A stretch of DNA of 64,000 bases from Candidatus Saccharimonadales bacterium (GCA_050730755.1 JBOHNR010000008.1:79968-143967); one strand, 5' to 3'; counted from the first letter of the stretch, positions 3,252 through 64,000 are shown. Numbers and translations: made by a program. The notes: generated from the sequence alone by a model not told the origin.

Positions 3252-4784
3252 ATGGCGAGGATTGCAGCCGGTAAGATTTGGGCAATACTGAGTAGCCGAC
3301 GTTTTTACCTATTAATTTTAGGTTTTTTCGTCTTTGAGTCAGCCTGGATTGCCCTGTCGGCCGTTTACCCCCAAGCTTTCGATGAGGACTTCCATTTTGG
3401 CCTCATCAAGCTCTATTCTCACTACTGGCTGCCGTTTCTTGCCCACCAACCACCCGGGGGTGATGCCTTTGGAGCGGTAGCTCGCGACCCTTCGTACCTT
3501 TTTCACTACCTGATGAGCTTTCCTTACCGGTTGATAACACTCTTCACTCACAATCAAACGCTCCAGATAATTTTGCTTCGTTTTATCGATATTGTCTTCT
3601 TTGGCATCGGTTTAATTCTATTTCGTCGTATCTTACTTCGAGTTGGCGTTTCTCGGGCGCTGACTAACACGACACTTTTTTTGTTTACCCTTATCCCGGT
3701 CGTACCCCTAATTGCCGGTCAGATCAACTACGATAATTTACTTTTCCCGCTGGTCGCCTGGAGCTGTCTGCTAACTTTTCAAGTTATAGATGAAATTAGA
3801 CAAAAGAAACCGTCGGCCAAAAGTTTAATCATATTAATCACTGTTTGTTTGCTGACTAGCCTAGTAAAGTACGCTTTCCTACCGATTTTTGCGGCCATTT
3901 TTCTGTTTGTACTCTATTTGATATTTCGAAATTACCGATCTCAGTTTAAAAAATTCTGGCAAGAACTTTTGGATAGCTTTGGCCATCTGAACCTGTTTTC
4001 AAAGATAATCTTAATTTTAATACTCCTTCTTAGTCTTGGCATGTTTGCCGAGAGGGACGGCGTTAATCTTGTAACCTATCGTACTATCGCCCCGAATTGC
4101 AGCCAGGTCTTAAGCCTAAAACAATGCGACCAGAACAGTATTTTCTCAACCGATCTAGGGCGGCACCAAAAGGTCGTCGCCGATCCGGCCTTAGTTTCCC
4201 ACGACCCGATTACTTATGTCGGCCAGTGGTTATATTGGATGTGGTACCGCCTATTCTTTTCTATAAATGGTCCAACTAGTAACTATGTTAATTACCCGCC
4301 GCTACCGCTACCGGCTTTAGGCGGCGCCTTGATAGCTACCCTAGCTACCTTGGCTATCATTAGGTGGTATAAGCGTCTTTTTTATAAGAAACCTTATCTT
4401 TCGTTCCTGGCTCTAGCTAGCTTGATCTATATCTTGGCTCTTATCTTTGAAGGTTACGAGTACTACAAATACACCGGCGTTTTGGAACTAATGAACGGTC
4501 GTTATCTGTTGCCGGTACTGCTACTGCTGGGCGCTATGGCGGCACTGGCTTTTAGCTGGGCACTTCGTAACCGGATGACTTATAAACTAATTGCTGTCTT
4601 TGTAGCTTTTATTTTATTTATGCAAGGTGGTGGATTTTTGACGTTTATCGCTAGCAGTGACTCGACCTGGTACTGGCCTAACCAAACTGTCGTCAAGGCT
4701 AACGCTGCCGTTCGCCACGTGACTAACCATGTCGTCGTCAAAGGCAAAAAGACCCCCCCCAGCCAGTTTTGGATCATTCCGTAG
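3252..4784 (+). CDS. GT-C-fold-like polytopic membrane glycosyltransferase (ArnT/PMT/DUF2142-like)
   Basis: 510 aa with more than 10 hydrophobic helices. First-loop acidic motif AFDEDFHFGL resembles the DExxHF of the DUF2142 paralog at 18124. Confidence 0.45.
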   Translation: MARIAAGKIWAILSSRRFYLLILGFFVFESAWIALSAVYPQAFDEDFHFGLIKLYSHYWLPFLAHQPPGGDAFGAVARDPSYLFHYLMSFPYRLITLFTHNQTLQIILLRFIDIVFFGIGLILFRRILLRVGVSRALTNTTLFLFTLIPVVPLIAGQINYDNLLFPLVAWSCLLTFQVIDEIRQKKPSAKSLIILITVCLLTSLVKYAFLPIFAAIFLFVLYLIFRNYRSQFKKFWQELLDSFGHLNLFSKIILILILLLSLGMFAERDGVNLVTYRTIAPNCSQVLSLKQCDQNSIFSTDLGRHQKVVADPALVSHDPITYVGQWLYWMWYRLFFSINGPTSNYVNYPPLPLPALGGALIATLATLAIIRWYKRLFYKKPYLSFLALASLIYILALIFEGYEYYKYTGVLELMNGRYLLPVLLLLGAMAALAFSWALRNRMTYKLIAVFVAFILFMQGGGFLTFIASSDSTWYWPNQTVVKANAAVRHVTNHVVVKGKKTPPSQFWIIP

Positions 4785-5762
4785 GGTCGTGATAATTGAA
4801 TGATTAATTGGCTTATCGCTGTAGCGAGCGCGTCTTTGCTCTTCTAAAATGTCTTCAATCAGAGTCCGGTTTATCCGGATTAAGTTAGCCACCACACCGA
4901 GAGTAAACGAAATAAACGAGGCGTTTAGCAACACTGTGCCGACAATTAACGACTGCAAGTGATGACTGCCAAACGGCTGTTTGTCGATGACAATAATGTA
5001 CAAATAATGAATGAACGGAACTAGGCCACCGAGCAGCAGTATGACACCCAGCGTCAAAAAAACAGCGTAAGGCTTATACATGGTGTAGGCATTGAGCAGG
5101 GCAAAGATCGATTTTCTAATGTGTTCCCAAGAAGACTTAAATAGTCTTGATTCACGGGTCTTGCGGTTGGTTTTAATCTTGATAGTAGCAATCGCTAAAC
5201 GTTTATAGCCGGCCTGGAGGTTAGTTTCCATGGCAAAATTAAAACGGCCGACCAAATTGAGCTTAATAGCTGCTTCTTTAGAGTAAGCCCTAAAGCCACT
5301 GGTACTATCTGGAATTTGGGTGCCGGAGGCCTTATTCGAAACGAAGGTGCCAAGTCTTTGGAGAAATTTCTTAGTAGCTGAAAAATGCTCGATAGTGTGT
5401 ACTTGGCGGTCGGCAATCACCGTATCGGCTTTGCCTTCGACGATTGGTCGTACTAGATCGTGTATACGCTCCTGGGGGTACTGATTATCTCCGTCAGTTA
5501 AGACAATAATATCGGCACCTAGCTCCAAAGCTCCCCTCATACCATCACGGAGCGACAGAGCCAGTCCGCGGTTTCTGGCGTGGTTTATGAAGTGTCTAAC
5601 GCCGTTGGCTTTGGCGACTTCAACCGTTTTATCGCTTGAGCCATCGTTAATGACCAAAATATCGATATCATCAATACCCGAAATTGCTCTCGGAATTGAT
5701 TTTAGGACTGTCGGTAACGTCTTTTCTTCATTAAGACAGGGGATTATGATCACTAATTTCAT
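4614..5762 (-). CDS. GT2 polyprenol-phosphate glycosyltransferase (DPM1/GtrB-like) with C-terminal TM helices
   Basis: IIIPCLNEE...INDGSSD...LTDGDNQ GT-A motifs and two C-terminal TM helices. The 3' 171 nt overlap the convergent ORF 3252..4784. Confidence 0.7.
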   Translation of the reverse strand: MKLVIIIPCLNEEKTLPTVLKSIPRAISGIDDIDILVINDGSSDKTVEVAKANGVRHFINHARNRGLALSLRDGMRGALELGADIIVLTDGDNQYPQERIHDLVRPIVEGKADTVIADRQVHTIEHFSATKKFLQRLGTFVSNKASGTQIPDSTSGFRAYSKEAAIKLNLVGRFNFAMETNLQAGYKRLAIATIKIKTNRKTRESRLFKSSWEHIRKSIFALLNAYTMYKPYAVFLTLGVILLLGGLVPFIHYLYIIVIDKQPFGSHHLQSLIVGTVLLNASFISFTLGVVANLIRINRTLIEDILEEQRRARYSDKPINHSIITTLRNDPKLAGGGLFAFDDDMVSHVANGSVSLDDSLVRPVPGRVTASDKRQKSTTLHK

Positions 5763-5887
5763 ATAATTTTACTTTCTCCGGCTTAATTCAAATACACCAC
5801 GAGCGACACTGAACTTAAGATCATTTAGCTGTGATAAGCCTGAATCATTACTCTTATTATACCCGCATATTTTATAGCCTTAGAAAG

Positions 5888-38570: not shown

Positions 38571-38584
38571 ACTAAACGTTAACA

Positions 38585-38715
38585 ATCAAAACCGGAATCA
38601 GGGTGAAATTCCCTGGCTGTGCCGCAACTGTTATAGCCAGATACGGTTAAAGTCTCCCGAGCAGGAGCGGCGAATTGATTAAAAAACCCTGGCTCGGCAA
38701 AAGAGTGAGGGTATT
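38585..38715 (+). promoter_or_regulatory. Candidate cobalamin (B12) riboswitch, compact/variant type
   Basis: Core string AACCGGAATCAGGGTGAAATTCCCTGGCTGTGCCGCAACTGTTATAGCCAGATACGGTT (38590-38648). It contains a CAGGG/CCCTG hairpin with a GUGAAAUU loop, GCCGCAACTGT (consensus CCCGC[AC]ACUGU) and AGCCAGATAC (B12-box-like AGCCAGGAGAC). The closing helix is AACCG/CGGTT. A CCGAGC-AGG/CCT-G-GCTCGG hairpin (38657-38697) and SD GAGGG (38707-11) follow. Confidence 0.55.
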
Positions 38716-38723
38716 TTTTAAAA

Positions 38724-39881
38724 GTGGCCGCAAGAGCTGAAAAGCTACCTGGACAATATGACAATCACGATCAAATTGATCGTCAGTTAGGTTTATACGA
38801 TGAAGCTTCGACTTTATTCGCCGAAACTCTTGATGGCAACATGCGGACCGAGTTTTTACTCCGCTTTGACGGAGAAGAGCTTTATAGTCACGACGGCCAG
38901 GCCTTAAAGTCTGTTTTTCAGGATTCGATAAATGCGGCTGAGAAACTAGCCGAAAGCCAACCTAATTTTTTATTCGAACTAAGACGACGTCAAATCGAAC
39001 TAGAAGAGTATCAGGATATGCTGGCTTTGGCACGAAGTGGAAAGCATAACACCATGGTAGTAGTATCGGACTTTCCACCTGAACTGATGACTGCAAAAGA
39101 AAGTATGGGTGGCTATAATAAAAGCCGCCAACAAACGATGTTAAGAGTCATTACGCGGCAAGCTGGCGGGTCGCTGAGAATGATCTCGCAGAGCTTGGAT
39201 CGTTCCAACCGCCCAGCTCTGGAGGCTATTTACGCTCATTTCGGACTTAAACCAAATGACGGCGAATTGTTAGGCCAGCGGATCTTCACTGAAATTGCCC
39301 AGGAAGAGCAAGTTTATCTGGATGATTTTTTAACTGGTCTTTATGATAAGTCTTTGACTGATCAATACGGTGGTCATTGGTATGCTGGGCGAAGTAGTGG
39401 AGACACCGACAACACCTATGACTTTGTCAGGCGGCAATCTGATTTATTGCACTATTATGTCCAGTCCAGGCTAGATAATTCAGATTGGGTTGAAAAACTA
39501 GACTATAACGTGGCGGCAACTTTTGCCAAACGTTTCAAGCGATATTCAGAGCTTAAATATGACTACCAGTTTAACCCCTCTGGACTACCCCACAATCTAA
39601 TGGCTGAAGTAGCCAATGACGGCGCCAAAGCTCAGGCTCAAGGTCTTAGTTTCAACAGCTGTGGTACTACGCTTGGGCCGTCTGAATCGGATCTTCAAAA
39701 GGCCGGTTATGGGAATAAGACAAATGAAGCTAGTTCGTATAAGTTTGATAAAAAGATGTACTGCGTTGTTTGCCAGGTACCACCCAAAGAAACCGAGAAA
39801 CCGAAAATGTGCGGACCTTGCGGCATCTGTCAAAAGTGTGACCTAAAACTTAGTAGTCACCCAAAAGTCACAGTCATTTAA
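38724..39881 (+). CDS. Uncharacterised 385-aa protein with a C-terminal six-Cys cluster
   Basis: Long clean ORF. GTG start 12 nt after GAGGG (first in-frame ATG only at 38838). No TM or signal peptide. C-terminus MYCVVCQ-x14-CGPCGICQKC (zinc-ribbon-like). I recognise no family. Confidence 0.55.
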   Translation: MAARAEKLPGQYDNHDQIDRQLGLYDEASTLFAETLDGNMRTEFLLRFDGEELYSHDGQALKSVFQDSINAAEKLAESQPNFLFELRRRQIELEEYQDMLALARSGKHNTMVVVSDFPPELMTAKESMGGYNKSRQQTMLRVITRQAGGSLRMISQSLDRSNRPALEAIYAHFGLKPNDGELLGQRIFTEIAQEEQVYLDDFLTGLYDKSLTDQYGGHWYAGRSSGDTDNTYDFVRRQSDLLHYYVQSRLDNSDWVEKLDYNVAATFAKRFKRYSELKYDYQFNPSGLPHNLMAEVANDGAKAQAQGLSFNSCGTTLGPSESDLQKAGYGNKTNEASSYKFDKKMYCVVCQVPPKETEKPKMCGPCGICQKCDLKLSSHPKVTVI

Positions 39882-43952: not shown

Positions 43953-44735
43953 ATGAAGACCATTCCCGTATATCGAAGACCATTAAATAAATCGCAAATA
44001 AAACTTTTAAAAACACTTTATAGATTCCGTTTCGCTAGCAGTTACCAGATAGCTAAAAGTCAGGGTAGATCGGTCAGAGTTATTTATGATCGGTTAAAAG
44101 TACTTCGTGATCAAGAATTTATTGGTCAAAACTATGACAGTAGTTACCGGATTAAAGACAAACCAGCCAGTTATTATCTTAAATCTAAAGCTATCCGTAA
44201 TTTAGCGTCGCAACCCGATACATCTAAGAAGGTGCTTAACAATATCTATCATGATAAAAATGCTTCTAAAGCCCATATTGACCATTGCCTGAGCCTCTTT
44301 ACGATCTACCTTGAAATCCAGCGGCTCTATAAAAATCAGCTCCAGTTTTTTACCAAGAGTGAGCTCTCTGGTCAGCCAGATTTACCAGACTATTTGCCAG
44401 ATGCCTTACTACGCCAAGCCGGCCGGAACGGTTATCCGGATGAAAATTACTTTCTTGATTACTATCAAGAATCCGTCCCTAATTTTCTACTCAGCCGGAA
44501 AATTAAAAATTACCTTTATTTTGTCAATATTGATTGGCTAAAACCAAAGCCGCCGACCATCTTAATGATCTGCCAGACAAAAATGATGAAAAGAAAGATG
44601 ATCGAAGTAGTTAAACGAGAACTCGATTTTTATTCCGCTGATATCAAATTTTTAGCTACTAGCTTATATGAACTCAAAAAGTGGCCAGATAAAAAAGAGA
44701 CTTACTGGCAGGAAGTTGATAACGACTATAACTAA
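43953..44735 (+). CDS. Replication-relaxation-family-like protein (wHTH N-terminus)
   Basis: LNKSQIKLLKTLYRFRFASSYQIAKS...RLKVLRDQEFIG wHTH pattern, then H..L / PDA / acidic motifs in the order I associate with the Replic_Relax family. Preceded by a very AT-rich 240-nt spacer. Confidence 0.45.
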   Translation: MKTIPVYRRPLNKSQIKLLKTLYRFRFASSYQIAKSQGRSVRVIYDRLKVLRDQEFIGQNYDSSYRIKDKPASYYLKSKAIRNLASQPDTSKKVLNNIYHDKNASKAHIDHCLSLFTIYLEIQRLYKNQLQFFTKSELSGQPDLPDYLPDALLRQAGRNGYPDENYFLDYYQESVPNFLLSRKIKNYLYFVNIDWLKPKPPTILMICQTKMMKRKMIEVVKRELDFYSADIKFLATSLYELKKWPDKKETYWQEVDNDYN

Positions 44736-56919: not shown

Positions 56920-56994
56920 CGCGGGGTGGAGCAGCGGCAGCTCGCGTGGCTCATAACCACGAGGTCGCAGGTTCGAGTCCTGTCCCCGCAACCA
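56920..56994 (+). tRNA. Initiator tRNA-fMet (anticodon CAT)
   Basis: CGCGGGGTGGAGCAGCGGCAGCTCGCGTGGCTCATAACCACGAGGTCGCAGGTTCGAGTCCTGTCCCCGCAACCA. C1xA72 mismatch and an acceptor stem identical to E. coli tRNA-fMet. Only two of the three canonical G-C pairs are present at the base of the anticodon stem. Confidence 0.9.
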
Positions 56995-57037
56995 AGTCAT
57001 GCACCAACAGGGGTAGACTGGGTTCCTAGACCGGTCT
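56970..57037 (+). repeat. Repeat R copy 1: tRNA-fMet 3' part plus its terminator hairpin
   Basis: GGTTCGAGTCCTGTCCCCGCAACCAAGTCATGCACCAACA... aligns with 58246-58314 (35 of the first 40 positions identical by hand alignment). Confidence 0.8.
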
Positions 57038-57050
57038 TTTTCTTTTCTTC
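57015..57050 (+). terminator. Rho-independent terminator of tRNA-fMet
   Basis: AGACTGG / CCGGTCT stem (one G-U pair) followed by TTTTTCTTTTCTTC. Confidence 0.5.
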
Positions 57051-57073
57051 TTAGAACTTTACCTCTGTAATTA

Positions 57074-57085
57074 GGTTCGAGTCCT
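57074..57085 (+). repeat. Isolated T-arm-like fragment GGTTCGAGTCCT
   Basis: Identical 12-mer to the T-arm of tRNA-fMet and to R copies 2 and 3, with no tRNA body upstream. Confidence 0.5.
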
Positions 57086-57093
57086 ATTCCCAT

Positions 57094-57207
57094 TGGCTCG
57101 AACCGCCCAAGAGCATCATTGTAGCGCAATTAACTCCTAGCACAGTTTCTAAAACTGTCCAACCCTTATCATAGGTACTGGATGCCTCAAAACTAGACCG
57201 TGTTCCA
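57094..57207 (+). repeat. Repeat S copy 1 (114 nt, unassigned non-coding element)
   Basis: Aligns along its full length with 58385-58497. Shared blocks: TGGCTCGAACC, CATCATT, TTAACTCCT, CACAG, AAAACTG, ATAGG, CTGGA, ACTAGACCG, GTTCCA. Confidence 0.7.
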
Positions 57208-57227
57208 GGGCTGTTCCTAATAGTTAA

Positions 57228-57263
57228 TCGTGAAAATTTATATATTATTGCTATTTTTCACGA
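57228..57263. promoter_or_regulatory. 9-bp perfect inverted repeat (operator-like) upstream of the Fic promoter
   Basis: TCGTGAAAA (57228-36) and TTTTCACGA (57255-63) separated by 18 nt. TATAAT at 57273-78. Confidence 0.35.
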
Positions 57264-57284
57264 TGAGTATGATATAATGGTAGT

Positions 57285-58178
57285 ATGATCAACCAAATTA
57301 CTAAAAGTCGAATTACAACCCTCTCTGACAAGTACAAAAAATTAGCGATTAATAAGACGCAGGCGATTAGTGAAATTGCGTTAGCCGAGATTCCTGAGAT
57401 GGTCTATAACAGCAACGCAATAGAGAACTCGACACTTACGCTTAAAGACACTGAGGATATTTTGCTCCGGGATACAATCAAAAAAGACCACGATATTCGA
57501 GAGGTGTACGAAGCCAAAAACTTAGCCAATATTACTGAGTACTTACTCAAAAATTCAGATAAGCCCTTAAACGTTGAGCTTATCTTATCACTCCACAAAA
57601 TGTTACTTTCGGGTATTCGTGATGATTGGGCTGGTCGGTTTCGTAGAGGCAAGGAATGGGTACGCGTTGGTGGGTATGTTGGAGCAAACCCCGATTTTGT
57701 GCCCAGTCTCATGAGCACCCTGCTAAAGGATTACGGACAACAGGATGACGGCTATTTTCTGGATAGCATCGCCTGGTTTCATGCGGAGTTTGAAACCATC
57801 CACCCTTTCAATGATGGCAATGGTCGGATAGGTCGTGTCATTATAAACCAGCAACTCACCAGACGAGGTTATCCACCCATTATCATTCCCAACAAGGGCA
57901 AATACACTAGTTACTATCCAGCCTTCGATGCCTATCGTACGACTGGAAAGTACGACGACTTCACGGGGTTACTTGCCAGTTTATTGATCGAGTCACTCTA
58001 TAAACGAATTACTCTCCTATCGGCACCAAAGACCATTACCGTATCTGCATGGGCTAAGGCAAATGGCATAGCCGGCAATATTGCAGCCAATAAAGCAAGC
58101 CGCGGTACTATTCCAGCATTTAGAATGCGCGAAAAGTGGATGATTGCAGCAAACTTTCGCGAAGAGAAGAGCAAATAA
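57285..58178 (+). CDS. Fic-family protein (AMPylase type, class II with an N-terminal inhibitory helix)
   Basis: Fic motif HPFNDGNGRIGR. N-terminal SNAIEN matches the [ST]xxxE[GN] inhibitory motif. Confidence 0.85.
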   Translation: MINQITKSRITTLSDKYKKLAINKTQAISEIALAEIPEMVYNSNAIENSTLTLKDTEDILLRDTIKKDHDIREVYEAKNLANITEYLLKNSDKPLNVELILSLHKMLLSGIRDDWAGRFRRGKEWVRVGGYVGANPDFVPSLMSTLLKDYGQQDDGYFLDSIAWFHAEFETIHPFNDGNGRIGRVIINQQLTRRGYPPIIIPNKGKYTSYYPAFDAYRTTGKYDDFTGLLASLLIESLYKRITLLSAPKTITVSAWAKANGIAGNIAANKASRGTIPAFRMREKWMIAANFREEKSK

Positions 58179-58245
58179 AGTAGTTTACAATTAAAGGATG
58201 CAAGCTAAGGTGAAGTAAGCTTGAAACCAGGTGGTATTGGGAGGC

Positions 58246-58314
58246 GGTTCGAGTCCTGCCCCCGCAACCAGATCATGCATCAAAAATACGAGACCGTGTT
58301 CCATGACCGGTCTC
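58246..58314 (+). repeat. Repeat R copy 2: partial tRNA-fMet 3' end (no 5' half) plus hairpin
   Basis: GGTTCGAGTCCTGCCCCCGCAACCAGATCATGCATCAAAA..GAGACCGTGTTCCATGACCGGTCTC. The upstream sequence cannot form an acceptor or T stem. Confidence 0.8.
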
Positions 58315-58384
58315 TATTTATTTACCCCTGTTAGATCCTACCCAAAAGGCTAGACTATTAATACCATGGAGACCTAGGTGAGAC

Positions 58385-58497
58385 TGGCTCGAACCACCCA
58401 GAACATCATTTCATTACGGTTAACTCCTTACACAGGTTCCAAAACTGACCTATTACTACCATAGGGGCTGGACACCTCCAGACTAGACCGCGTTCCA
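58385..58497 (+). repeat. Repeat S copy 2 (113 nt)
   Basis: See copy 1. Occupies the same relative position, about 70-115 nt after an R copy. Confidence 0.7.
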
Positions 58498-58543
58498 TGA
58501 CCGATGCCCATGCCCATATCGGTTCATAGGAGTAAGCTGATAA

Positions 58544-58975
58544 CTACTTATCTTCTAGGTGGGGAAACAAATACTTTACTGAGCTTGTATGCATAATTTT
58601 TGTATTATGAAATTCTTTAAGATGTAGTAAATCGGGATCAGCAGTAATGATTAAATCGGCTTTGGCTTCGAGCGCACATTCCAGTATTTTGTTGTCATCC
58701 GGGTCACGCTCTGTTAGCAGATCTACCTTTTGGCGGGGTCTAATGACGGTCACAGCTTCCTCTATCCGACTTAACCACCTAACGACAGTATCTCGAGGAA
58801 ATTCAAACTTATTCTCTAACTTATCTTGCAGTTCTTGCAATATTTCTGGCGAAGTATAGTAGGTGCCTAAGTATTGGGCAGCTGAATCTTCGACAATCTT
58901 GTAAATTATGCTCTGCGGATTTAAAGCAGCCGCGACGTAGACATTAGTATCCAAGACTACACGGACGGGTTTCAT
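58544..58975 (-). CDS. PIN-domain toxin (VapC-like)
   Basis: VVLDTNVYV N-terminal acidic motif, ...DPDDNKILECA..., ...LIITADPDL. 4-nt overlap with the upstream antitoxin gene. Confidence 0.75.
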   Translation of the reverse strand: MKPVRVVLDTNVYVAAALNPQSIIYKIVEDSAAQYLGTYYTSPEILQELQDKLENKFEFPRDTVVRWLSRIEEAVTVIRPRQKVDLLTERDPDDNKILECALEAKADLIITADPDLLHLKEFHNTKIMHTSSVKYLFPHLEDK

Positions 58976-59187
58976 CCTAGATATTTTTCTATATCGTCAA
59001 CACTCGTTAGGTTCAGGGAATCGAGCTTTTTGCGCAATTGTGTCGACATATCTTTCCAGGTCCGTTCCCAGGCGGCTTGTGCTAACAATCGACGGACGAT
59101 GACGCTCTTAGAAACACCGTCCTCTTTAGAGAATCGTTCTATCTCTCTTTTTAGTTCTTCGTCTAATGAAATACTTAATGTTGTCAT
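58972..59187 (-). CDS. Ribbon-helix-helix (CopG-like) antitoxin
   Basis: 71 aa. N-terminal beta-strand LSISLDEELKREIERFS. Coupled to the PIN gene. Confidence 0.65.
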   Translation of the reverse strand: MTTLSISLDEELKREIERFSKEDGVSKSVIVRRLLAQAAWERTWKDMSTQLRKKLDSLNLTSVDDIEKYLG

Positions 59188-59208
59188 ACGAGAACTATAA
59201 CAAAATTA

Positions 59209-59237
59209 CTAACAATTCGCAATACTATTATTGTTAG
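59209..59237. promoter_or_regulatory. 8-bp perfect inverted repeat, probable RHH-antitoxin operator
   Basis: CTAACAAT (59209-16) and ATTGTTAG (59230-37), 22 nt upstream of the RHH start codon. Confidence 0.35.
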
Positions 59238-59314
59238 ATAATGATTATGACATTGGTAGGCACTATGCTAGCATGGGTCGAGCCGCAAAAGCGACAGCAG
59301 TATATTAGTGACTC

Positions 59315-59337
59315 GGTTCGAGTCCTGCCCCCGCACC
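59315..59337 (+). repeat. Repeat R copy 3: partial tRNA-fMet 3' end
   Basis: GGTTCGAGTCCTGCCCCCGCA-CCA. Identical to copy 2 over 21 nt, then a 1-nt deletion. No 5' half upstream. Confidence 0.75.
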
Positions 59338-59357
59338 AAACTGATTAGAGCATATGT

Positions 59358-59390
59358 GTCCGTAGAGTCTATACTTTACGGACATTTTAT
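59358..59390 (+). terminator. Rho-independent terminator-like hairpin after R copy 3
   Basis: GTCCGTA / TACGGAC 7-bp perfect stem, 12-nt loop, then ATTTTAT. Confidence 0.5.
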
Positions 59391-59514
59391 ACTGGGATTG
59401 AAATTAATCTGGTTCTAAGAACTTAGAGCCAAAGTGGTTAATAATGGTTGGGCTACACTTACCATCAGCAGAGCACAATAGGCTATTAGGCGAAGAAGAG
59501 GCTTTACAAAGATT

Positions 59515-59538
59515 ATACCATCGTATATACTATGGTAT
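59515..59538. promoter_or_regulatory. 7-bp perfect inverted repeat overlapping the relB promoter
   Basis: ATACCAT (59515-21) and ATGGTAT (59532-38), abutting the ATG at 59539. TATACT -10 box at 59526-31. Confidence 0.35.
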
Positions 59539-59826
59539 ATGAGTAGTTTAGATAAAACCATTATTAACTTGAAGGTTAACAAGAGTTTGAAGCATGAAGC
59601 TCAGGAGGTAGCTAATGAGATTGGCGTACCTCTCACTACGGTTGTCACCGCTAGTCTCAAGGAGTTTGTACGTAGCCGCTCTTTAACCCTGTCTGCCTTC
59701 CCCCGGCTAAAACCAGAGATTGAAAAAGAGCTTGGTGTGGCTATTAATGATTACAAGAAGGGGAGAAATACCTCTAAGGTTTACTCCAAACACGAAGATG
59801 TTGCCAGCCATCTTAGTACTCTATGA
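59539..59826 (+). CDS. RelB/DinJ-family antitoxin
   Basis: INLKVNKSLKHEAQEVANEIGVPLTTVVTASLKEFV RHH-like N-terminus. ATGA overlap with the toxin gene. Confidence 0.7.
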   Translation: MSSLDKTIINLKVNKSLKHEAQEVANEIGVPLTTVVTASLKEFVRSRSLTLSAFPRLKPEIEKELGVAINDYKKGRNTSKVYSKHEDVASHLSTL

Positions 59827-60083
59827 ACGTTATTTTCCATAAGCGTTTTGATAAGATGGCAGCAAAGTTGTCTCCAAAATTAAAGACTCAAATGGTGAAG
59901 CGCATAACGCTATTTAGTAAAGACCCACTAACGCCCGTATTAAAAAATCATGCCCTTAATACGGCTTATAGGGGCAGTTACAGTATAAATATTACTGGTG
60001 ACTACCGGGCAATTTATCACTTAGTAGATACCCAGACGGCTATGTTCACCCACATTGGCACTCACAGCCAGCTTTACCGATAA
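59823..60083 (+). CDS. RelE/YafQ-family mRNA interferase toxin
   Basis: 86 aa. ...KNHALNTAYRGSYSINITGDYRAIY...HIGTHSQLY pattern. Confidence 0.75.
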   Translation: MNVIFHKRFDKMAAKLSPKLKTQMVKRITLFSKDPLTPVLKNHALNTAYRGSYSINITGDYRAIYHLVDTQTAMFTHIGTHSQLYR

Positions 60084-60177
60084 CTAGAAGTATCGTTTCT
60101 TATGTTGTTATTACTTAGAATATGAGGTGTATTGACTTGGGATTCCAGACCATGGCGCTCAACCATGGGTATCTTAA

Positions 60178-60204
60178 CCTCTATATTTCTATAGGGGTTT
60201 TTAT
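60178..60204 (+). terminator. Rho-independent terminator
   Basis: CCTCTATA / TATAGGGG stem (one G-U pair), loop TTTC, then TTTTTAT. Confidence 0.55.
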
Positions 60205-61446: not shown

Positions 61447-61474
61447 TTGACAAATTATAGATTTTGTGTATAAT
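61447..61474 (+). promoter_or_regulatory. Near-consensus sigma70 promoter
   Basis: TTGACA (61447-52), 16-nt spacer, TATAAT (61469-74). Confidence 0.55.
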
Positions 61475-61527: not shown

Positions 61528-61623
61528 ATGAAAAATAGTAACAATCTAGCGTTTGAATATGTCTACGTAGACTCTTCTGATCAAAGATTTCTGAAGATAG
61601 ATAAAATACTAAGTAAAATATAA
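61528..61623 (+). CDS. 31-codon micro-ORF MKNSNNLAFEYVYVDSSDQRFLKIDKILSKI
   Basis: AAGGAG 5 nt upstream of the ATG, consensus promoter about 50 nt upstream, strong terminator 30 nt downstream. Not in the ORF track because it is too short. Confidence 0.4.
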   Translation: MKNSNNLAFEYVYVDSSDQRFLKIDKILSKI

Positions 61624-61652
61624 ATTAGATAAGTCCCTAAATTAAAGGAGCA

Positions 61653-61685
61653 GCTCTGGATTAGCCAGGGCTTTTTTATTTTTAA
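61653..61685 (+). terminator. Rho-independent terminator
   Basis: GCTCTGG / CCAGGGC stem (one G-U pair), loop ATTAG, then TTTTTTATTTTT. Confidence 0.6.
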
Positions 61686-62181: not shown

Positions 62182-62619
62182 CTATAAGCTACGAAGGTAT
62201 TGTAGAAATAATCCGGGTGTAAGCAAGACGATTTGAAAGTCTTGGTTTATTTTTTCTGCCTTAAAGTCACGGATATTATAAGAGACGATAAAAGTTGCTT
62301 TAGCTTCTTTAGCACCAGCCACAATATGAGCATCATCTATGTCGCTTACATATCCCGCAAATCGTTGCTTCACTGTATTGAGCGATTGGCCAATATTAAT
62401 AGCCACTAATTGACTATTTATTAGATCGTGCAGGTCTTGTATTGCAAGACGAAGTCGACTAGCGACTTTTTCAAGCTCTGTTATGGATAGATTTGAGACA
62501 TATAATTCTAGCTGCTGGTTGTTCTGCAGAAGAGTATAGGCAGCACCAGATTTTGAAATTAGAGAAGAGATAACGACATCTGAGTCAATGAAGACTCTTA
62601 TTGAGGCGTGGTTGCTCAT
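62182..62619 (-). CDS. PIN-domain toxin
   Basis: VFIDSDVVIS, ...DDAHIVAGA..., ...IVSYNIRDF acidic-residue pattern. Three nt downstream of its HTH partner. Confidence 0.7.
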   Translation of the reverse strand: MSNHASIRVFIDSDVVISSLISKSGAAYTLLQNNQQLELYVSNLSITELEKVASRLRLAIQDLHDLINSQLVAINIGQSLNTVKQRFAGYVSDIDDAHIVAGAKEAKATFIVSYNIRDFKAEKINQDFQIVLLTPGLFLQYLRSL

Positions 62620-62621
62620 GG

Positions 62622-62888
62622 CTACTGTTCTTTGCGGACTGCCGAAAGTTCTCTTTGTATTTGAGGTAGCGAGATACTGTCTACTTGCTCAGCTTCGTAT
62701 AAATCTGCGTCTAAACCATTAAACATAAAAGATATAGAACTTGCCGGTATACGGTAAACCCTACCAAATCGTTTTGCCACAAGCTCTCCATGACTAATTA
62801 GGTCGTACACGGTATTTTTAGAGAGCTGCAACATGCTTGCAACTTGTTCGGGGGTATAAACACTATCAGGGATAATTCTACTAGACAT
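62622..62888 (-). CDS. Excisionase/MerR-type helix-turn-helix antitoxin
   Basis: YTPEQVASMLQLSKNTVYDLISHGELVAKRFGRVYRI HTH motif. Confidence 0.65.
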   Translation of the reverse strand: MSSRIIPDSVYTPEQVASMLQLSKNTVYDLISHGELVAKRFGRVYRIPASSISFMFNGLDADLYEAEQVDSISLPQIQRELSAVRKEQ

Positions 62889-62931: not shown

Positions 62932-63007
62932 TGGTAGCGGCGAGTGGACTTGAACCACTGACCCCAGGCTTATGAGTCCTGTGCTCTAACCACTGAGCTA
63001 CACCGCC
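62932..63007 (-). tRNA. Elongator tRNA-Met (anticodon CAT)
   Basis: Minus-strand sequence GGCGGTGTAGCTCAGTGGTTAGAGCACAGGACTCATAAGCCTGGGGTCAGTGGTTCAAGTCCACTCGCCGCTACCA. GAGCAC...ACTCATAA...GGGGTCA resembles E. coli metT. G1-U72 and A31/G39 are non-Watson-Crick. Confidence 0.8.
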
Positions 63008-63113
63008 ATGATTTAAGGATCTTATGCCAAAGGGTAATATAGCACGCTTTCTATCTGTTGACTATAAAAGATAAGCTTCAAGACTCATAAAGTAGCTTTA
63101 GTATACTAAAGCC

Positions 63114-64000
63114 ATGATTATTGAGCTAAATCCAGGCAACTATGTCATCGGTGTTAGTGGCGGTGTGGATTCGATTGTCCTGCTTGACCTGCTCAAAAAC
63201 CAACCGGCAGTCCAATTGGTCGTTGCTCATTATGATCACGGAATTAGGGCTGATTCAAAAAAAGATCGGCAATTTGTTCAGAAAATTGCCAAACAACTTA
63301 AGTTACCTTTCGTATACGAAAGTGGAGAACTTGGACCAACTACCAGTGAAGCAATGGCTCGAAAAAGGCGCTATGAATTTTTGGAAAAAGTTCGTAAAAA
63401 TAACGACGCCCGAGCCATCGTCACCGCCCATCATCAAGATGATCTACTTGAGACAGCCATTCTAAATATCCTGCGGGGGACAAATCGCCGGGGACTAACG
63501 TCACTCGGAAGCGGACCTTTACTTATTCGACCGATGCTACATTTATCAAAAAAGGAAATCTTGGCTTATGCCAAAGCCCGGCAACTAAAATGGTATGACG
63601 ACCCTACGAACGATGACGAGAGGTATCTCCGGAACTACGTCCGGCATCAGATAGTAGTTAAATTTCAAGCTAAACAGAGAAGACAGTTACTAAGTATTAT
63701 TGAAAAAACACGCCAGACTAACGAAGAACTGGATAAGCAGCTTGTTAATTTGATGCAGAATGAGTTAAATTTGCAATACTTGGACCGGACCTGGTTCATT
63801 AGCTTGCCTCACGAAGTTGCCAAAGAGTTTTTAGCTACTTGGTTTCGTATCCAAAACATCGGAAATTATGATGCGTCGACTTTGGAACGAATTGTGATCG
63901 CGGCTAAGGTGGGTAAGGCGGGAGCTTTGATCGATATTATTGATGGTGTGTCGCTTAATCTTAAAAAAGACTCTTTAGCACTCGTGGGGTTAGAGCGCTA
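63114..64000 (+). CDS. tilS: tRNA(Ile)-lysidine synthetase, N-terminal ~295 aa (3' end outside window)
   Basis: Hand translation of frame 63114: MIIELNPGNYVIGVSGGVDSIVLLDLL...VAHYDHGIR...TAHHQDDLLET...RPML. PP-loop SGGxDS motif, and open to the window end. Absent from the ORF track because there is no stop codon. Confidence 0.85.
   Translation, partial: MIIELNPGNYVIGVSGGVDSIVLLDLLKNQPAVQLVVAHYDHGIRADSKKDRQFVQKIAKQLKLPFVYESGELGPTTSEAMARKRRYEFLEKVRKNNDARAIVTAHHQDDLLETAILNILRGTNRRGLTSLGSGPLLIRPMLHLSKKEILAYAKARQLKWYDDPTNDDERYLRNYVRHQIVVKFQAKQRRQLLSIIEKTRQTNEELDKQLVNLMQNELNLQYLDRTWFISLPHEVAKEFLATWFRIQNIGNYDASTLERIVIAAKVGKAGALIDIIDGVSLNLKKDSLALVGLER

Follow-up and report, generated by a model that had tools for sequence, protein, structure and literature searches.

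Recombinase-less cassettes bounded by copies of the initiator tRNA 3' end in a Saccharibacteria genome: a putative composite island

How can small gene cassettes come to stand in tandem behind a tRNA gene, each closed by a copy of the end of that gene, in a stretch of DNA that holds no recombinase? The question is raised by a locus of Candidatus Saccharimonadales bacterium (GCA_050730755.1 JBOHNR010000008.1:79968-143967), of which 64,000 nt, here called the window, were analysed; all coordinates are those of the window unless a related locus, numbered with the prefix L, is named. The source organism belongs to the Saccharibacteria (TM7), within the Patescibacteria or Candidate Phyla Radiation (CPR), and the best relatives of its DivIC-like gene (51-73% identity) are found only in Saccharibacteria metagenome-assembled genomes. 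In the window, the initiator tRNA gene (tRNA-fMet) is followed by a Fic gene and by toxin-antitoxin pairs, and an earlier note on this DNA had proposed that site-specific integration took place there twice. We consider it fairly probable that the region 56,970-60,200 is a composite integrative island at the tRNA-fMet 3' end, built of recombinase-less cassettes that belong to a family of islands associated with a large serine recombinase (LSR).

The tRNA gene, its copies and the DNA between them

Three tRNA-Met(CAT) genes were called in the window by ARAGORN and Rfam, and the intact initiator type is the one at 56920-56994 (+), with an Rfam score of 60.3 bits and conserved synteny. The gene order tRNA-Met(-), DivIC, tRNA-fMet(+) is kept in about 50 Saccharibacteria loci, and the DNA 3' of tRNA-fMet is variable among them, over 2.3-9 kb, up to a second tRNA-Met(-) and tilS. 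A Pfam survey of 110 open reading frames (ORFs) in relatives (top 25 families) found this downstream region largely non-syntenic among distant species. The G+C content of the window changes from 0.45-0.48 upstream to 0.40-0.42 over the array.

The repeated block within the tRNA gene is its last 25 nt (56970-56994, +), which constitutes the tRNA-proximal junction and resembles an attL attachment (att) site, with the tRNA followed by an element arm. The 25-mer GGTTCGAGTCCTGCCCCCGCAACCA is matched there with one mismatch, at 58246-58270 (copy 2) with none, and at 59315-59338/9 (copy 3) with a 1-nt deletion (CCCCGCA-CCA). The copies are spaced 1276 and 1069 nt from start to start, and 100 shuffles gave 0 chance matches. 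Copies 2 and 3 have no 5' half, neither ARAGORN nor Rfam (down to E<=10) calls a tRNA or tRNA-like gene over them, and their would-be T-stem 5' strands (GGCGG and ACTCG) cannot pair with CCTGC; the spacing and the lack of a 5' half are as the earlier note gave them. A T-arm-only copy lies in addition at 57073-57091.

The earlier count of two cassettes and three copies has to be enlarged. A fourth, degenerate copy of R type, GGGATTCCAGACCATGGCGCTCAACCA, lies at 60139-60165 (+); it ends in ..TTCCAGACCATGGCGCTCAACCA and has only ..CAACCA in common with the tRNA. It is unique within the window (0.01 expected), and its pattern exactly matches a cassette end in L120, where it is the left bound of a Fic cassette (5670-5692). 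Because copy 4 lies at this position, the RelB-YafQ pair before it is taken as a third bounded cassette, and the array totals three cassettes (Fic, RHH-PIN and RelB-YafQ) and four end copies. On the 3' side of copy 4, a terminator scan found the hairpin ACCTCTAT..ATAGGGGT with a T-run (60176-60199, +), which resembles the terminator directly 3' of tRNA-fMet in the closest relatives L063, L086 and L087 (ACCTCTGTTATTGGGACAGAGGTTTTTT) and is probably, judging from this resemblance, the native tRNA-fMet terminator and flank in a displaced position. The window holds an intact tRNA gene together with displaced direct copies of its 3' end that bound inserted DNA, which is the Islander-type pattern of an island.

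The cargo of the first two cassettes, identified in the earlier note as Fic and PIN-RHH, bears those names in Pfam as well. Cassette 1 encodes a Fic/DOC family protein of 297 aa (57285-58178, +; PF02661, E=1.9e-20), whose homologues fall into more than 120 clusters at 73-89% identity, and closes with a distal arm of about 55 nt and copy 2 (58190-58270, +; copy at 58246-58270). Cassette 2 carries a type II toxin-antitoxin system (58544-59187, -), composed of PIN_3 (58544-58975; homologues 80-91% identical) and RHH/CopG (RHH_1, 58972-59187), and closes with its own distal arm and copy 3 (59255-59338, +; copy at 59315-59338). After copy 3 stands a hairpin terminator (59356-59385, +; a 13-bp stem, then TTTAT, in the terminator scan), which is of neither of the two arm types described below, A1 and A2, and forms the left arm of cassette 3. 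The cargo of cassette 3 (59539-60083, +) is a RelB-like antitoxin (59539-59826, a weak Pfam match) and a YafQ/RelE-family toxin (59823-60083; YafQ_toxin, 7e-8); in L067, a YafQ pair of 41% identity is enclosed by a tRNA-end copy on one side and an R-type end on the other. Both orientations occur among the cassettes, which bring promoter-like sequences of their own.

The repetition goes on past the tRNA end. The earlier note had followed the homology of copies 1 and 2 for about 45 nt beyond the CCA, as terminator only, and this was too short: it extends, with gaps, over about 250 nt, in one block of 77% identity (56970-57046 against 58246-58322) and another of 73-75% (57094-57207 against 58385-58497). 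The repeated parts outside the tRNA are the arms M1 (type A1, 56995-57217, +) and M2 (type A2, 58271-58509, +), direct repeats of each other. M1 consists of a spacer, a hairpin with T-run (57015-57042), a motif named S (57061-57091) that includes a T-arm-like partial copy, a T-loop in inverted form (57096-57106) and a core of 114 nt (57094-57207). In M2, a spacer is followed by a hairpin and T-run (GAGACCG..CGGTCTC, 58290-58314), by an S motif that has degenerated and by a core of 113 nt (58385-58497).

These arms have relatives in other genomes. M1 is 87.6% identical (window 56966-57110) to the arm that opens an LSR island in L122, and 86.7% to that of L129. M2 matches the arm after tRNA-fMet in L125 (82.6% over 86 nt) and in L129 (73.9% over 268 nt), and an arm beside another tRNA in L127 (76%). 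Altogether, such arms follow tRNA-fMet or its copies in L120, L122, L125 and L129, and a different, intron-containing tRNA in L127, at identities of 74-88%. M1 and M2 are element DNA rather than a local duplication, and the repeat past the CCA is a conserved element-side arm of about 85-250 nt, which goes beyond the tRNA terminator alone. The distal arm of cassette 1 is conserved with L120, L122 and L123 (77-83% identical to L122/L120) and, with copy 2 and M2, would make up an attP-like junction; that of cassette 2 is homologous to the DNA upstream of copy c3 on the reverse complement of L129 (L129rc).

Two other identities of M were considered and rejected. A structured RNA was rejected on the lack of an Rfam match and an RNAalifold energy of -7.65 kcal/mol, and a gene remnant on substitutions without codon phase (8/7/11) and shared stops on both strands; M is read as a non-coding element arm. 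A pattern scan of metagenomes with the M core gave 0 matches, the pattern being too strict. The S motif, (A/C)CCTCTGTAAnTTAGGTTCSAGTC, recurs after an A-type hairpin in several lineages (window 57061-57091; L093 10628-10655; L112 around 615-650; L122 5773-5805 and 7060-7090), and its first 8 nt are the 5' half of the terminator ACCTCTGT..ACAGAGGT of other relatives, fused to T-arm-like sequence; it may derive from a former junction.

Related arrays and the serine recombinase

A Fic cassette with the same boundaries as in the window was found in L120 and L122-L124, loci that were reached from two of the Fic homologues. L123 represents a single-cassette state, in which DivIC, tRNA-fMet, arm, Fic, copy 2, native terminator, tRNA-Met(-) and tilS follow each other. 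L122 has an identical Fic protein and the same layout up to copy 2, past which it carries a second (A1) arm, a trypsin-like gene, a 421-aa LSR on the opposite strand and a type I restriction-modification (R-M) system. The contigs L122 and L124 come from one sample and share a stretch of 6,982 nt at 100% identity, which stops 2 nt beyond the copy 2 CCA (..CAACCAAG); after this breakpoint L122 enters the LSR island, whereas L124 enters the native flank, as L123 does (99.4%). The equivalent of copy 2 is in this pair the exact breakpoint of an island's presence/absence polymorphism, and the L122-type and L124-type arrangements were each assembled in 2 samples.

In L120, the Fic cassette stands in mid-array, with an R-type end beside genes resembling the cyclic oligonucleotide-based anti-phage signalling system (CBASS) on its left and a T-type copy, then another arm, on its right. 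L129, which was reached via a homologue of the window PIN (89% identical), has DivIC, tRNA-fMet, an A2 arm, a helicase with HicAB, a T-type copy, RHH-PIN, a second T-type copy, an A1 arm, DUF4238 and an LSR. The RHH-PIN cassette lies between two T-type copies in L129-L131, and window 58545-59335 is 75% identical to L129rc 5002-5814. The order of the arrays differs from host to host: Fic, PIN and RelBE in the window, Fic alone in L123, Fic and the LSR island in L122, CBASS-like genes with Fic further on and more DNA after it in L120, and helicase-HicAB, PIN and the LSR island in L129.

Intact cassettes have spread horizontally among these hosts. Compared with L122/L120, the window shows 83-85% amino-acid identity in Fic and 74-83% identity in the non-coding arms, against 48-59% for the host intergenic spacers and 62% for the DivIC coding sequence. 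The host proteins of the window are 48.6% (DivIC), 57.8% (Dus) and 46% (TilS) identical to those of L122/L123, and 70-73%, 69-70% and 62%, respectively, to those of L063/L085/L087; in the closest (species-level) relatives, no copy of the window's Fic and PIN was found. The RHH-PIN cassette likewise recurs with the same boundaries, at another array position, in a distant host (L129). Independent decay of large islands to an identical single-gene unit is improbable, and for this reason it is the small unit itself that is taken to have spread.

Further small segments bounded by tRNA-end or terminator repeats are found in L094 (a hydrolase and a different Fic), L104/L106 (another Fic), L093 (a methyltransferase, then a 145-aa ORF) and L067 (RelB-YafQ). 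L106 is collinear with L071 and L102 save for a Fic insert of about 1.44 kb, flanked by a duplicated [ACCA + terminator + E element]; L104 carries the insert too, while L071 and L102 have a single copy of [ACCA + terminator + E]. The distal copy in L106 is nearer than the proximal one to the relatives' single copy, and L106 against L071/L102 is an occupied against an empty site. The reading of the earlier note would have fallen if all relatives shared one arrangement, or if the copies were parts of functional tRNA-like genes. Relatives are in fact polymorphic, with repeat breakpoints (L122 against L124/L123; L106 against L071/L102), and the copies are not tRNA-like genes.

The element E named here is a non-coding stretch of about 150-190 nt, conserved in one Saccharibacteria clade after the tRNA-fMet terminator and absent from the window. 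It is located at L067 1955-2108, L071 11005-11156, L072 11015-11170, L074 10665-10790 and L075 6035-6169, and occurs also in L088, L102 and L104/L106. It starts with an inverted tRNA 3' half, giving a palindrome of about 100 nt with the gene end, contains a conserved hairpin GCAGGWGCTTGCWCCGAG with a compensatory change and no Rfam match, and ends with a copy of its own genome's tRNA-fMet acceptor strand and a second terminator.

Fic recurs downstream of tRNA-fMet in at least 4 lineages and was considered as the mobility function itself. This was rejected, as Fic is not a recombinase, the proteins are only 27-33% identical, and PIN, RelBE, HicAB and methyltransferase cassettes use the same ends.

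An integrase gene is missing from the bounded segments of the window and present in the related arrays L122, L125, L127 and L129. It encodes an LSR of about 421 aa with the domains Resolvase, Recombinase and Zn_ribbon_recom, and its homologues form hundreds of Saccharibacteria clusters at 65-89% identity. The LSR is linked to a window-type junction in all four related arrays examined, at a distance of 1.0 kb in L122, 1.5 kb in L129, 2.4 kb in L125 and 7.7 kb in L127, and in the three arrays at tRNA-fMet the LSR and the tRNA point towards each other. L125 and L127 were reached via the LSR itself and are unbiased with respect to att: in L125 the neighbouring tRNA-fMet bears an A2-type arm at its 3' end, and in L127 the neighbour is a different tRNA that is split by a group I intron, with the window-like arm (76%) after the 3' half of this tRNA. 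The LSR family is likely to be the catalyst of the junctions.

Some observations on recombinases and targets may be added. A transfer-messenger RNA (tmRNA) was considered as the target in L127 and rejected in favour of the 3' half of the intron-split tRNA. Group I introns (Rfam RF00028, 71 and 82 bits) split tRNAs at L063 6499-6698(-), in the tRNA-Met(-) upstream of DivIC, and at L127 18973-19227(-), in the tRNA beside the LSR island; both tRNAs were missed by ARAGORN. Pfam on the cassette genes and unassigned ORFs of the window, together with a weak regex scan, gave no tyrosine recombinase for the window or for the DNA flanking related arrays. The regex scan for tyrosine- and serine-recombinase motifs returned nothing, with a serine pattern that was too strict (the LSR has YARKSS), and tblastn was used instead. 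Serine-recombinase-like genes 29-31% identical to the island LSR are found upstream of the tRNA-Met(-)/DivIC pair at L095 8309-9307, L080 8338-9318 and L107 271-1224, and may mark islands at the neighbouring tRNA-Met.

A candidate mechanism and its rivals

The copies are very probably att scars left when DNA integrated site-specifically, and in tandem, at the 3' end of the tRNA, as the earlier note had read them, and this is backed by the repeat-and-module junctions of relatives and by the L122/L124 breakpoint. A junction would be composed of the upstream cassette's distal arm, a tRNA 3'-end copy (or a degenerate ..CAACCA end) and the next cassette's proximal arm, the last being a module of 85-250 nt that opens with its own hairpin terminator. 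Such junctions would be the attachment sites of Saccharibacteria islands, the autonomous members of which would encode the LSR of about 421 aa.

The position of the crossover can be narrowed. A variable position in the block reads CCTGT in the window tRNA, as in its closest relatives, and CCTGC in copies 2 and 3, while the copies of L129 have T, C and G; the crossover is placed 3' of this position because the variant travels with the upstream arm. The R-type ends share only CAACCA with the tRNA. By all three marks, namely the position of the single-nucleotide polymorphism (SNP), the CAACCA of the R-type ends and the divergence of L122/L124 after CAACCAAG, the crossover would fall within roughly the final 11 nt of the tRNA gene or the first 2 nt beyond. 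With a crossover so near the gene end, the tRNA would stay host-derived and intact, and the proximal arm would give it a new terminator. At the distal end, the 25-nt tRNA mimic would be joined to the native flank, recreating an attB-like site on which the next element could land, and cassettes would accrete in tandem through repeated landing at regenerated sites. Such regeneration of attB would explain the position of the L122 island distal to Fic, as well as the building of arrays by a serine integrase.

The window cassettes would be non-autonomous members, kept through their addiction or defence genes, and most likely move, or moved, by an LSR given in trans from a co-resident island. Mobilisation of these cassettes in trans, as against their being dead remnants, is plausible at slightly less than even odds. 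In its wider form, the proposal is tentative and falls somewhat short of even: Saccharibacteria would hold non-autonomous cassettes of a single operon each, with genes for Fic, toxin-antitoxin systems or other defence functions, and an LSR specific to the family and supplied in trans would capture these cassettes at tRNA-fMet, stack them and exchange them. Each cassette would then have a full attP-like site, made of the tRNA-fMet 3'-end mimic and the conserved arm with its terminator, and every insertion would regenerate the distal landing site. If true, an ultra-small CPR genome would possess a counterpart of the integron cassette array that works with a serine recombinase.

Several points weigh against the island and its mobilisation in trans. 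LSRs normally do not recombine attL- or attR-like hybrids, and tandem accretion would need the attB-regeneration model. The distal arms of cassettes 1 and 2 share no homology, and cassette 3 lacks an A1 or A2 arm. The L122/L124 contrast comes from metagenome assemblies that break at a repeat, where a chimeric join is possible. The nearest relative by DivIC is 73% identical, and no strain-level relative was found. For the window genome, no circular or excised form and no empty site were seen; the Logan contigs L082/L083 (SRR27067711, same genome) read through copies 2 and 3 and break inside tRNA-fMet and inside tRNA-Met(-), and the SRR27067711 Logan assembly gave no sign of an abundant cassette-less variant. 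The absence of an integrase from the window, already seen in the earlier note, stands: Pfam on the cassette genes and unassigned ORFs gave no match to an integrase, a resolvase or a transposase, and four LSRs used as tblastn queries (E<=0.01) found no LSR fragment or pseudogene in the 64 kb. Precomputed Pfam matches over window 1-22.8 kb are to cell-envelope genes only, and some housekeeping-looking ORFs at 22-47 kb were assigned by eye alone. With no LSR, other recombinase or LSR pseudogene in the window, this genome gives direct evidence neither of autonomous islands that decayed nor of an enzyme acting in trans. The island and cassette family was also not found in IMG/VR: the 25-mer gave 62 matches in viral contigs, all of them full tRNA-fMet genes in phage tRNA arrays or contig-edge truncations and none an attP, and the junction 17-mer CGCAACCARRTCATGCA gave 42, all by chance within coding DNA and none with a T-block or LSR.

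The lack of a recombinase could also mean that two or three islands, once of full size and equipped with integrases of their own, have decayed under deletion bias to the genes that resist loss, so that the repeats are dead scars. Toxin-antitoxin cargo would be expected to outlast such decay, other genomes have full islands above 10 kb in size that bear the same arms, and the wear of the array fits as well, with a 1-nt deletion in copy 3, a heavily degenerate copy 4, and M1 and M2 only 68-77% identical. This account is nonetheless unlikely, though by no means negligible. Minimal Fic and RHH-PIN units with the same boundaries occur in distant hosts while nearer relatives are without them, the non-coding arms of the cassettes are better conserved than host spacers, no remnants of integrase pseudogenes were found, and in L122/L124 a displaced copy of the same type forms a live site. 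On balance, the way in which intact cassettes are distributed horizontally favours mobilisation in trans over decay.

Shuffling by homologous recombination is distinctly improbable. It would proceed by DNA uptake and RecA-type recombination, with the nearly invariant tRNA-fMet and the modules of 85-250 nt serving as portable homology. Direct repeats would loop out circles that insert in Campbell fashion, or a double crossover would replace resident DNA, and the small cassettes would require no site-specific enzyme. Natural competence has been reported in Saccharibacteria. The repeats reach about 250 nt, are imperfect and are longer than a recombinase core needs; the duplicated segment of L106, about 190 nt, includes the host-type E element, and the duplicate in L094 is 58 nt of terminator at 90%, with the tRNA part diverged. 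Against this, short end motifs are better conserved than the cargo, as L094 and L106 have an R-type end of 37 nt in common at 92% identity and Fic proteins that are only 33% identical, the R-type pattern is common to the window and L120, the L122/L124 breakpoint lies exactly at the end of the 25-nt block, and the link with the LSR gene is consistent. The conserved end motifs, this exact breakpoint and the LSR link are the reasons for which a sequence-specific site is preferred.

A reading of the truncated copies as chance similarities, or as working genes for tRNA-like or regulatory RNAs, rather than as recombination scars is barely credible: the hairpin and T-run after each copy could end a transcript, and the conserved, structured element E of related genomes closes with a copy of the tRNA-fMet 3' end, but ARAGORN and Rfam, down to E<=10, place no tRNA, tmRNA or other family over the copies, T-stem pairing is gone, the DNA upstream of each copy tracks the cargo and not an RNA structure, 0 chance matches are expected, and the M core folds weakly (-7.65 kcal/mol).

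Neighbouring features, known systems and significance

Beyond the array, a second PIN_3 toxin (62182-62619, -) is paired with an HTH_17 protein, of the excisionase-type helix-turn-helix (62622-62888, -), and the pair directly adjoins tRNA-Met(-) at 62932-63007 and tilS at 63102-63998; the G+C content goes down to 0.33-0.39 across 61.2-62.6 kb, and the pair may be a separate insertion at this other tRNA. Between the array and this pair, a perfect sigma-70 consensus promoter (TTGACA-16-TATAAT, 61447-61474) drives a 31-aa ORF (61528-61623, MKNSNNLAFEYVYVDSSDQRFLKIDKILSKI), followed by a terminator at 61652-61672. Similar ORFs are found in L123 (32 aa, 4090-4253, ..GLAFELIEAHDPAISEIDRILSSL, ahead of tRNA-Met(-)/tilS) and in L069 (..GLAFEV..). 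Because radical-SAM genes lie in the same region of L070 and L076, the product may be a peptide precursor. On the upstream side, a 260-aa ORF (43953-44732, +) with a weak Replic_Relax match (PF13814, E=2.5e-6) has a homologue, 32% identical, about 8 kb downstream of tRNA-fMet in L079, and is possibly the remnant of another mobile element. An AdoCbl-II (cobalamin) riboswitch aptamer (38576-38653, +; Rfam RF01689, 46.2 bits) lies upstream of the ORF 38724-39878.

Among known systems, the composite islands of the staphylococcal cassette chromosome (SCC), with their ψSCC elements, are the closest analogue of the window array, which is not a member of them. In these islands several elements follow one another, marked off by direct repeats of the integration-site sequence, and ψSCC elements without a recombinase lie beside elements having one (PMC3900703). 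They use the large serine recombinases CcrAB or CcrC at the extreme 3' end of a housekeeping gene, and carry R-M and resistance or defence cargo (PMC3900703). The likeness lies in a target at the 3' end of a conserved gene, tandem elements, integration-site repeats, members without a recombinase, and R-M and defence cargo, and L122 and L129 mix recombinase-less cassettes with an LSR island. Unlike SCC, with its rlmH/orfX target, the arrays described here use tRNA-fMet, or another tRNA in L127, in a CPR host; a single LSR of about 421 aa, likened to Ccr by shared domains alone, takes the place of CcrAB/CcrC; and the non-autonomous units are of 0.8-1.3 kb with one or two genes and arms of 85-250 nt, unlike the multi-kb ψSCC.

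tRNA islands are described as intact tRNA genes with displaced 3' fragments, tandem arrays, foreign cargo and common integrase-less remnants (PMC4383910). The window is like such classical, Islander-type islands in having an intact tRNA followed by direct 3'-end copies that mark the ends. Classical islands have tyrosine integrases and a crossover within the tRNA, for which the island supplies a new 3' end, whereas the present array is LSR-associated, its tRNA body is probably host-derived, as SNPs indicate, and the repeat runs far into the element arm.

Other systems stack recombinase-less, att-bounded units that are mobilised by an enzyme encoded elsewhere, among them the cis-mobilisable elements (CIMEs) of accretion-mobilisation (ICESt1/ICESt3 of Streptococcus thermophilus), the integrative mobile elements exploiting Xer (IMEX) and the pdif modules, which are often single-gene or toxin-antitoxin cassettes. 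These use tyrosine recombinases, either the integrase of an integrative and conjugative element (ICE) or XerCD, and the targets are the fda 3' end and dif; no Xer-type 28-bp site was seen in the window array, which sets it apart from the XerCD/dif systems.

Integrons invite a comparison as well, and the earlier note had spoken of an integron-like mechanism not described for this kind of genome. Small, mostly single-gene cassettes with recombination sites between them on a fixed platform are common to both, and toxin-antitoxin systems are common in chromosomal integrons. Unlike integrons, the array has no IntI, attI or Pc, its junctions are not attC hairpins (the M core folding weakly), each cassette has promoter-like sites, both orientations occur, and the associated enzyme is a serine recombinase. 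As to novelty, that part of the claim holds within the phylum, as far as the literature was searched: an incomplete search on Saccharibacteria and Patescibacteria integrases, serine recombinases and tRNA islands found no account of the system. The other part does not hold, as the LSR family makes the system SCC-like and integrase-less stacks are known elsewhere (ψSCC, CIMEs, dif modules), so that integrase-less elements between att repeats would be new for this phylum only.

If the repeats are only the scars of decayed islands, the finding is an ordinary one. If the cassettes are mobilised, an attB-regenerating end would explain how cassette arrays can be built by a serine integrase, which is normally a one-shot enzyme. 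The compact integrase of about 421 aa, with its natural landing site in the near-invariant tRNA-fMet, is a candidate genetic tool for integration at a specific site in Saccharibacteria, where tools are scarce, and it also enlarges the catalogue of LSR/att pairs. For the biology of these organisms, whose mobile elements are poorly described, the arrays would offer a concrete and apparently widespread route by which defence and addiction genes are exchanged among tiny Saccharibacteria genomes.

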